A DNA stretch of 64,000 nucleotides from the sequence record MN850587.1; one strand, given 5' to 3'. This document shows positions 6,891 to 7,311 of the stretch, piece after piece. The notes below the pieces were generated by a model. It was not told the origin of the DNA, did not search any database, and saw only the letters and a program-made list of their open reading frames with translations. The position numbers and the translations under genes are program-made. This stretch comes from Escherichia phage mistaenkt. Every line of letters starts with the position of its first letter. Within the stretch, counting starts at the first letter, position 1.

Positions 6891-6974
6891 AAATTTTTAA
6901 AAATATTTTCAGGAATTGCCAGAGATGAACGGGCGCACGACTACCACAAAACATAGCACAAATCAAGAATTATT

Positions 6975-7250
6975 TTTCAGTTCTCTACAGATTTTTCTCT
7001 TGACTTTTGGGGAGAGGGGGAGTAAGAGGGGGAGATGGGCAGGGCTGGCACTATCTACCTACCTGCACAATTCTAAAATGATTTTTCTTGCCCGACACTC
7101 GCCGGGTCTGCACGTTTTGAAAATGAAAAAGCTCTTTGGAGTCCACCTGCACAAATTGAAAATGAATTTTCCCTTTGGAGTTCAAAATTTTCTCTACAGA
7201 TTTCTGTCCAGACTTTTACCTGCACAATTTTAAAATGAAAAAGCCCTCCT
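6975..7250. repeat. G-run tract plus four degenerate direct repeats (core CTGCACAAWTTNAAAATGA) and two TTCTCTACAGATTT repeats
   Basis: G-runs at 7009-7044 (GGGGAGAGGGGGAGTAAGAGGGGGAGATGGGCAGGG); repeat cores start at 7063, 7108, 7147, 7220. Confidence 0.55.
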
Positions 7251-7311
7251 TACCTGAAAATTTTACCAGATAAGAAAGGCTTAGTCTATTGTGAATATGC
7301 TACAGAGTTTC

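Follow-up and report, generated by a model that had tools for sequence, protein, structure and literature searches.

A 501-bp intergenic gap (positions 6811–7311) in the genome of Escherichia phage mistaenkt is a non-coding, cis-acting DNA control region that is common to Ounavirinae phages. The stretch we analysed (the window) comprises 64,000 nucleotides of sequence record MN850587.1 and comes from a Suspvirus (Ounavirinae), a Felix O1-like myovirus. Within the gap are four direct repeats, which are likely to form a protein-binding array acting at the level of the DNA. The role of the gap is probably that of a replication origin or of a boundary element, and we tentatively propose that the array serves as a phage replication origin of the iteron type. 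The element is best filed as a new, lineage-specific control or origin region bearing iterons, whose parts (terminator, iterons and promoter) are ordinary.

The minus strand carries every gene from position 1 to approximately 36 kb. All neighbours of the gap are therefore on that strand, making the reverse complement the best orientation in which to read it. In the order of transcription, the gap consists of a terminator, the four direct repeats, a variable G-run cassette, an A-rich conserved block and a sigma-70 promoter, an anatomy based on an alignment of 19 phages (A1), a longer alignment of nine, and Erwinia phage phiEa21-4. A previous inspection of the letters alone (the sequence-only reading) had set the limits of the gap at 6891–7311, which proved too narrow. 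All the features that it listed are present, but it lacked the terminator (7241–7282), the minus-strand orientation and the position of the gap at the inner edge of a terminal block of early genes. A non-coding gap of about 460–510 bp is found at the equivalent place in SUSP2, Felix O1 and phiEa21-4, and small open reading frames (ORFs) have been annotated within it, on differing strands, in wV8 and several other records. The region from 6700 to 7500 is 97–98% identical to EP1, EcSzw-2 and SUSP2, and 77–82% identical to approximately 230 other Felix O1-like records.

The repeat core, CTGCACAAWTTNAAAATGA, lies at 7063, 7108, 7147 and 7220 and at no other site in the window. With up to three mismatches allowed there were four matches against 0.35 expected, and four were reached in 0 of 100 shuffles. 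On the minus strand the core reads TCATTTT-N5-YGTGCA(GGT). The sequence-only reading had found all four copies and two of the spacings between them (45 and 39 nt; the third is 73 nt), but its core is only part of a larger unit of approximately 27–37 nt, of the form [G-rich]-W4-5-TCATTTT-N5-YGTGCAGGT. From start to start, the TCATTTT and GTGCA blocks are offset by 12 bp, roughly a single turn, and so lie on the same face of the helix. In transcription order, the units are U1 (7218–7244, TTTTTCATTTTAAAATTGTGCAGGT), whose T-run doubles as the U-tract of the terminator, U2 (7145–7171, AAAATTCATTTTCAATTTGTGCAGGT, preceded by ACTCCAAAGGG), U3 (7106–7132, TTTTTCATTTTCAAAACGTGCAGAC, preceded by ACTCCAAAGAG) and U4 (7061–7087, AAAAATCATTTTAGAATTGTGCAGGT), all on the minus strand. 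Four direct repeats in one orientation, unique in the window and in SUSP2, agree with the pattern of an iteron origin, for which three or more such repeats of about 17–22 bp are expected. Tandem Repeats Finder reported no repeats in the region because the units are interspersed.

Two of the spacers have features of their own. The 73-nt spacer between U1 and U2 contains a second repeat family at 7190–7213 on the minus strand, consisting of two copies (TCTGGACAGAAA and TCTGTAGAGAAA) with a 12-nt period. The motif TTCTCTACAGATTT, which the sequence-only reading had reported twice, was found at 6981 and 7190; the TCTGTAGAGAA motif likewise occurs in this spacer and then as a third copy at 6981–6991, in the A/T-rich block. 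The spacer between U3 and U4 (7088–7105, A1 columns 225–245) is variable and includes a small GC hairpin, CCCGGCGAGTGTCGGG on the minus strand, of which neither the sequence nor the pairing is kept among relatives.

We then looked for the repeats in related phages, a check that had been suggested along with the binding array and iterons as candidate roles, and the outcome agreed with those roles. Exactly four units were present in 20 of 20 phages from four genera, the array was unique in the genome, and it was the most conserved part of the gap. U1 overlapped the T-run of the terminator in every lineage. Spacing was fixed within each genus: Felixounavirus and Suspvirus had 73/39/45 nt, most of the Moogle-like phages 75/41/45 nt and phiEa21-4 37/37/39 nt. 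Across the 88.7-kb SUSP2 genome, four matches to the motif at one mismatch or fewer lay in the gap, and one further one-mismatch match lay within a gene. Two other SUSP2 sequences, TTATTTGTGTTTTGTGCA (two mismatches) and TCATTTTAGGTTTGTGCT (one mismatch), stand 73 nt apart at the rIIB-gp081 junction (59736–59826; L047 14736–14826), one of them intergenic and the other at the start of gp081; these matches are weak and may be due to chance. No match to the motif was found in plasmids or E. coli genomes. In IMG/VR, matches were confined to contigs of 51–94 kb, mostly near full genome length, and the loci recovered from these contigs were Ounavirinae-like. Candidate arrays in metagenomes outside the Ounavirinae were rejected as unrelated tandem repeats. 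The element has no homologue outside the Ounavirinae.

The gap is constrained at the level of its DNA sequence. Compared with Felixounavirus relatives, DNA identity was 79–83% in the gap, 72–74% in the adjacent coding sequence and 88–92% in the part containing the terminator and repeats. The fraction of variable columns was 0.46 in the gap, versus 0.39, 0.30 and 0.72 at the first, second and third codon positions of the adjacent coding sequence. There is also a metagenomic lineage in which the macro-domain protein encoded upstream of the gap is 38–40% identical to that of the window and the gap downstream of it is 68–85% identical over the stretch that aligns. This combination suggests either that recombination has taken place around the gap or that selection on it is very strong. 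The lineage includes L074 (12037–13290), L097 (3408–4680), L083 and L095, and both alleles of the G-run cassette occur in it.

None of this conservation has the form expected of a protein-coding sequence. The plus-strand ORF noticed in the sequence-only reading (6916–7233; 105 amino acids from a TTG start, 99 from the ATG at 6935) does exist, and the doubt expressed there about its coding capacity was well placed: it is not a gene. Three-base periodicity was not found in it (variable fractions by phase, 0.474/0.452/0.461), the 19 phages disagree in the frame and the length of their longest ORFs, which are split or shifted in relatives, and all 14 indel runs were 1, 2, 4 or 10 nt long, none a multiple of three. 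These phase, frame and indel data ruled out coding potential for the gap on either strand.

Nor is the element likely to work as RNA, with the repeats and the C-rich tract of the cassette acting in a transcript, either by binding a protein or as a small RNA. Such a transcript might run into the early genes as a long 5′ leader, or it might be a plus-strand RNA. For the former there is a promoter-like sequence, TAGACT-17-TAAAAT with an extended-10 TG, at 7288–7260 on the minus strand; it lies inside the terminator stem-loop and is conserved only in part, and a transcript starting from it would be without the hairpin's 5′ arm and could traverse the repeats. For the latter there is an invariant TTGACT at 7000–7005, with a TA 17 nt downstream in both cassette alleles. 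However, both candidate -10 elements are weak or unconserved (TAAGAG, TAATAG, TAGCCT, TAGTCG), and the G-runs of the cassette change strand between alleles, which argues against a strand-specific function of the transcript. The best scores in a scan of Rfam 15 were 13–20 bits, against thresholds of 41–90 (E > 3), and a scan for tRNA and tmRNA found none. RNAalifold, applied to the 19 sequences, recovered only the terminator, with a covariation term of −1.17 kcal/mol, and the long-range pairs that it proposed never vary. The small RNA suggested in the sequence-only reading is thus not supported as a structured RNA, given neither an Rfam match nor covariation beyond the terminator.

We next considered what might bind the repeats. 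In a search for DnaA boxes (TTWTNCACA, one mismatch or fewer), no unit of the window, L016, L029 or L074 qualified, and all four units of phiEa21-4 did. The phiEa21-4 cores, CTATGCACA (three copies) and TTATGCACG, are each one mismatch from the box, and those of the window, Felix and Moogle genera (ACCTGCACA) are three mismatches from it. The binder is probably phage-encoded, because the Erwinia-phage genus (GTGCATAG) has a different core from the genera infecting E. coli and Salmonella (GTGCAGGT in these enterobacterial genera), while host factors of the DnaA type would be the same. IHF, CRP, MarA/SoxS, NtrC, sigma-54 and PhoB sites were rejected as candidates, as none fitted in an informal by-eye comparison with their consensus sequences. 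In the mechanism that we propose, the four repeats would be sites for one sequence-specific DNA-binding protein and would assemble a defined nucleoprotein complex, which would act as an iteron-type replication origin. The G-run/polypyrimidine mirror-repeat tract, which is prone to non-B DNA, would aid strand opening together with the A/T-rich block, and the strong early promoter nearby would provide transcriptional activation. The unique iteron array of fixed copy number, the A/T-rich block and non-B-DNA-prone tract that flank it, and the adjacent strong promoter make an origin plausible, although we hold this view with reservation.

Several observations weigh against an origin. The gap is flanked by the macro-domain gene and by small ORFs that match no Pfam domain; no recognisable initiator gene adjoins it, and no initiator is annotated in SUSP2. 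The only domain seen when the neighbouring proteins were inspected for DNA-binding domains was the macro domain, the C-terminal ~100 amino acids of that protein lying outside the large searches. The replication genes are more than 25 kb distant. The highest A+T content of any 100 nt in the gap is 69%, a value reached by 2.9% of windows, so there is no outstanding unwinding element, and the richest A/T stretch is the UP element of the early promoter. GC skew is approximately zero in the first 4 kb and about −0.1 rightward, a pattern contrary to that predicted for a bidirectional origin at 7 kb, in a window where skew is dominated by the direction of transcription. Our literature search found no experiment on any Ounavirinae origin, nothing relevant on Ounavirinae transcriptomes or iterons, and no description of the repeat element. 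The spacing of the repeats varies by genus (37–45 or 73–77 nt) and does not correspond to integral helical turns. Iterons in origins of the lambda ori and F ori2 type are spaced about 22 nt apart; unlike these, the repeats here are widely and irregularly spaced, at 37–77 nt, and they come without plasmid similarity, a recognisable initiator or a marked unwinding element.

Beside U4 lies the variable cassette (7007–7060), to which we applied a G-quadruplex (G4) motif scan and G4Hunter. The window has what we call the C allele, with five G-runs on the plus strand at 7009–7044. The sequence-only reading had proposed these runs as a G4 candidate, and they stand out clearly: GGGGAGAGGGGGAGTAAGAGGGGGAGATGGGCAGGG (7009–7044) is the sole canonical G4 motif (at least four runs of three or more Gs, loops of 7 nt or fewer) in the two strands of the 64-kb window, and its G4Hunter score of 2.36 is the highest in the window, the next site scoring 1.44. 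Only 14 regions of SUSP2 have an absolute G4Hunter score of at least 1.2, and the cassette site is the highest of them. On the minus strand, the C allele is a C/T-only tract with a mirror repeat, TCTCCCCCT-CTTAC-TCCCCCTCT. The corresponding minus-strand RNA (7044–7009) contains 24 C and one G among its 36 nt; it is both unstructured (−5.4 kcal/mol, z ~0) and untranslated.

The cassette is exchanged among relatives, and pairwise identity in this region falls to 58–66%. An unrelated alternative cassette was found in 140 of the approximately 262 non-Erwinia records that have the gap. This allele is not C-rich and begins with G-runs on the minus strand (G4Hunter 1.1–1.56, and 2.24 in L074), so the sign of the G4Hunter score flips between alleles, from −2.36 to between +1.1 and +2.24. 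An extreme G-run beside the fourth repeat is kept in both alleles; its sequence and its strand are not. The retention of a G-run whose strand flips fits a role in duplex DNA better than a role in a transcript. Because the G-runs are on the opposite strand in the other allele, a strand-specific RNA role, for example as a rut site, is not conserved, and the suggestion of the sequence-only reading that the tract is an essential G4 or Rho site is weakened.

A different possibility is that the G-run itself, as a G-quadruplex or an H-DNA triplex, is the functional core of the region and the repeats are secondary. Its G4Hunter score is the highest in the genome, the polypyrimidine mirror repeat is visible in the sequence, and independent assembly breaks at or just before the tract suggest that polymerases stall there in vitro. 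We nevertheless think this improbable, as the tract is replaced in those 140 relatives, most of the replacements have only moderate scores (1.1–1.56), and conservation is far higher in the repeats than in the cassette. As to the breaks themselves, contigs L011 and L012 (3584–3622) stop at an identical base in the tract, L012 running on into Nextera adapter sequence (CTGTCTCTTATACACATCTCCGAGCCCACGAGAC). Contig L025 (3508–3698) is joined, after the U3–U4 hairpin, to GC-rich sequence unlike phage. The Andreotti record (L003 1–23) starts just before the tract and contains a fold-back artefact, an inverted copy of the U3–U4 spacer. Such breaks probably reflect polymerase trouble at the G/C tract, although we take them as a hint.

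Following the cassette is a near-invariant A/T-rich block (6961–7008; AAAAGTCAAGAGAAAAATCTGTAGAGAACTGAAAAATAATTCTTGATT on the minus strand), defined by invariant A1 columns, whose conservation profile is 90–92%. It holds an imperfect inverted repeat, GTCAAGA...TCTTGA, which could form a hairpin that shows no covariation.

The array is bounded on one side by a strong intrinsic terminator (7231–7282, minus strand), which ends transcription of the upstream operon. It was detected in a terminator scan and has a 17-bp stem (7282–7241) followed by the T-run TTTTTCATTTT. The RNA folds at −25.8 kcal/mol (z = −7.0), and 0 of 200 shuffles were equally stable. The 3′ arm and T-run are invariant, and the Moogle-like (AGCCCTCC) and L074 (GGCTGCC/GGCGGCC) lineages have other 5′ arms, with the hairpin and its pairing retained. 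No pair in the stem has changed on both sides, and several have one-sided changes. The gap therefore has what characterises an intrinsic terminator, a GC-containing hairpin directly before a U-run, and the hairpin is kept in diverged relatives. The annotation of wV8 places a terminator here as well.

On the other side is the near-consensus early sigma-70 promoter (6860–6915, minus strand, from a promoter scan), with a -35 of TTGACC at 6888–6883, a 17-nt spacer and a -10 of TAGTAT at 6865–6860. Upstream of the -35 is an A/T UP-like element, AAAATATTTTTAAAAATTTGC (6915–6889). The -35, the -10 and a AAAATATTTTTAAAA element are invariant in the 19 phages, and the site has the features of a sigma-70 promoter; an early promoter, such as the sequence-only reading had placed near its region, lies just downstream. 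It is directed away from the repeats, into the early genes. With a terminator on one side and an outward promoter on the other, the repeats lie in a pocket that the flanking transcription units should not enter.

This arrangement raises the possibility, which we regard as doubtful, that the gap is a transcription insulator or boundary. The early genes have to be shut off later, and the gap would keep out of them any read-through from the upstream operon, which extends from rIIA to the macro-domain gene. Three layers would take part: the intrinsic terminator; a protein bound to the four repeats as a roadblock; and Rho, loaded on C-rich, unstructured RNA before the early promoter. The region does occupy precisely the interval from a strong terminator to the first early promoter, the overlap of U1 with the terminator T-run holds in all lineages, and the RNA from 7044 to 7009 is C-rich, unstructured and untranslated. 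Like rut sites, it is also G-poor and lies 3′ of a stop codon. Unlike rut sites, which are about 70 nt or more in length, the tract is approximately 36–50 nt long; it follows a strong intrinsic terminator and is not conserved in half of the relatives, whose alternative allele is G-rich in its first half. In about half of the relatives, the transcribed strand of the cassette is thus G-rich at its start, a feature unfavourable to Rho. Moreover, a terminator of −25.8 kcal/mol should suffice alone, and neither terminators nor rut sites need approximately 90% conservation of primary sequence and a fixed number of four repeats.

The position of the gap in the genome bears on two further readings. 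The genome terminus of Pr103Blw and Ro111lw, as defined by PhageTerm, corresponds to position 71208 of SUSP2, which is homologous to position 1 of the window to within 2 nt. Since the window begins at this terminus-equivalent point, the early genes from 1 to 6810 form a terminal block, and the repeats lie 7.06–7.24 kb in, at approximately 8% of the genome. The early genes are transcribed toward the terminus-equivalent end. The sequence at this point reads GCCCCCTTAACA..., and the first 469 nt of the window are non-coding and rich in short repeats such as CTATAAAG, GTTACGTAAAAG and CTTAAAAG. A terminal repeat has also been mapped in UAB_Phi87 (NC_027360.1), by Bal31 digestion and run-off sequencing, and it is in the tRNA region; the UAB_Phi87 record has 542 bp of it at both ends. 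The UAB_Phi87 repeat and the PhageTerm repeats of Pr103Blw and Ro111lw conflict in position, being about 15 kb apart. With the UAB_Phi87 ends elsewhere, the position of the terminus is itself disputed.

That the gap forms the physical genome ends, as a direct terminal repeat, or a packaging site is very improbable. The terminal repeats of Felix O1-like phages, at 0.58–0.61 kb, are near the size of the gap, and several contigs and one GenBank record end within it. However, one of the contigs ending there proved to be a circular assembly whose two ends carry the same motif, and the UAB_Phi87 repeat is not in the gap. The 581-bp terminal repeat annotated in Pr103Blw (1–581) and the start of Ro111lw are both situated approximately 7 kb from the gap, within another non-coding region, of 1.2–1.7 kb. 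We rejected the gap as a terminus, as the Pr103Blw, Ro111lw and UAB_Phi87 repeats are all elsewhere and one of the contigs ending in it is circular.

The second reading is that the gap is a first-step-transfer boundary like that of phage T5, with the early block of about 7 kb entering first and the repeats acting as an injection pause or stop site or as a site of anchoring to membrane or protein. T5 transfers 7.9% of its genome first; its iss region is non-coding, starts with a terminator, has many repeats and DnaA boxes, and carries a major nick, and the T5 pre-early genes dmp, A1 and A2 also run toward the genome end. The position of the repeats at approximately 8% and the layout here (a terminator, repeats, genes running endward) match, and the phiEa21-4 cores are all one mismatch from a DnaA box. 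Even so, we give the idea little credence. Two-step injection has not been reported for any Felix O1-like phage, and the reading presupposes that the early-block end enters first, an order of entry that is an assumption. The terminal repeat is about 0.6 kb rather than about 10 kb, the cores of the window, Felix and Moogle genera are three mismatches from a DnaA box, and the mapped ends of UAB_Phi87 are in the tRNA region. Were entry to occur in two such stages, the G-run tract or a site-specific strand interruption there could also account for the assembly breaks, an explanation to which we attach equally little weight.

The genes flanking the gap are the macro-domain gene upstream and the first early gene downstream. 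The former (7312–8094, minus strand, 260 amino acids, stop TAA at 7314–7312, from the ORF list) is annotated as a "phosphatase" here and in SUSP2 and FelixO1. Residues 25–142 match Pfam Macro (E = 6 × 10−8), and its matches in the Protein Data Bank are YmdB-like and O-acetyl-ADP-ribose deacetylase macrodomains. No family was detected in its C-terminal ~100 amino acids, at which the large protein and structure searches were not aimed. It is the sole gene that adjoins the repeats in every lineage. The first early gene (6604–6810, minus strand, 68 amino acids, ATG at 6810) is present in some relatives and absent in others.

The first early gene is preceded by a 45-nt module forming its 5′ untranslated region (UTR; 6811–6855, minus strand), which has a hairpin, GGGCAATCAAGCCC (6848–6835), a Shine–Dalgarno sequence, GGAG (6822–6819), and the ATG at 6810. 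By self-BLAST of the window, copies of the module precede at least 12 other early genes, with copies near 730, 1059, 1647, 1853, 2390, 2578, 3510, 3844, 4334, 4692, 5403, 6000 and 6346. On the minus strand the early-gene module reads ...GGGCAATCAAGCCC...CCTAAACTGGAGATTCAAAAATG, and most of the early genes that bear it have a promoter, TTTACA-18-TACCAT, within a stem-loop (GGGGCTTA...TAAGCCCC). In form the modules resemble recombination joints.

Felix O1 and its relatives rank with the most heavily used phages for typing, biocontrol and therapy of Salmonella and E. coli, and the gap is the most constrained non-coding DNA of their early region. The four-site array offers a target of approximately 200 bp for finding the origin, for identifying the DNA-binding protein and for engineering, including safe insertion sites, replication-dependent reporters and plasmids that are amplified by phage infection. 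The cassette alleles, with their G-runs on opposite strands, amount to a natural experiment on the role of non-B DNA in a phage genome.

Compared with known systems, the gap shares features with several. Like the T5 iss, it is a conserved non-coding region of direct repeats with a terminator first, about 8% from the end and where a block of small host-takeover genes has its inner edge. Unlike the T5 region, which is 1–1.2 kb long, lies inside a 10-kb terminal repeat and has paired DnaA boxes in inverted repeats, it contains four direct repeats, which in phages of E. coli and Salmonella do not amount to DnaA boxes, and there is no homology between the two. SPO1 exemplifies a terminal host-takeover module with repeated strong early promoters. 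As in the pre-early modules of SPO1 and T5, many small genes with their own sigma-70 promoters and stereotyped 5′ UTRs are found here near the genome end; unlike those modules, this block is outside the short terminal repeat, and the likeness concerns the neighbouring block and not the gap. Iteron origins include lambda ori, with four iterons for the O protein, the F plasmid ori2, with four 19-bp RepE iterons, and T4 oriE. Like them, the gap has four direct repeats of approximately 19 bp, which are asymmetric, share one orientation and have blocks about one helical turn apart, and which are unique in the genome, flanked by A/T-rich sequence and near active transcription.

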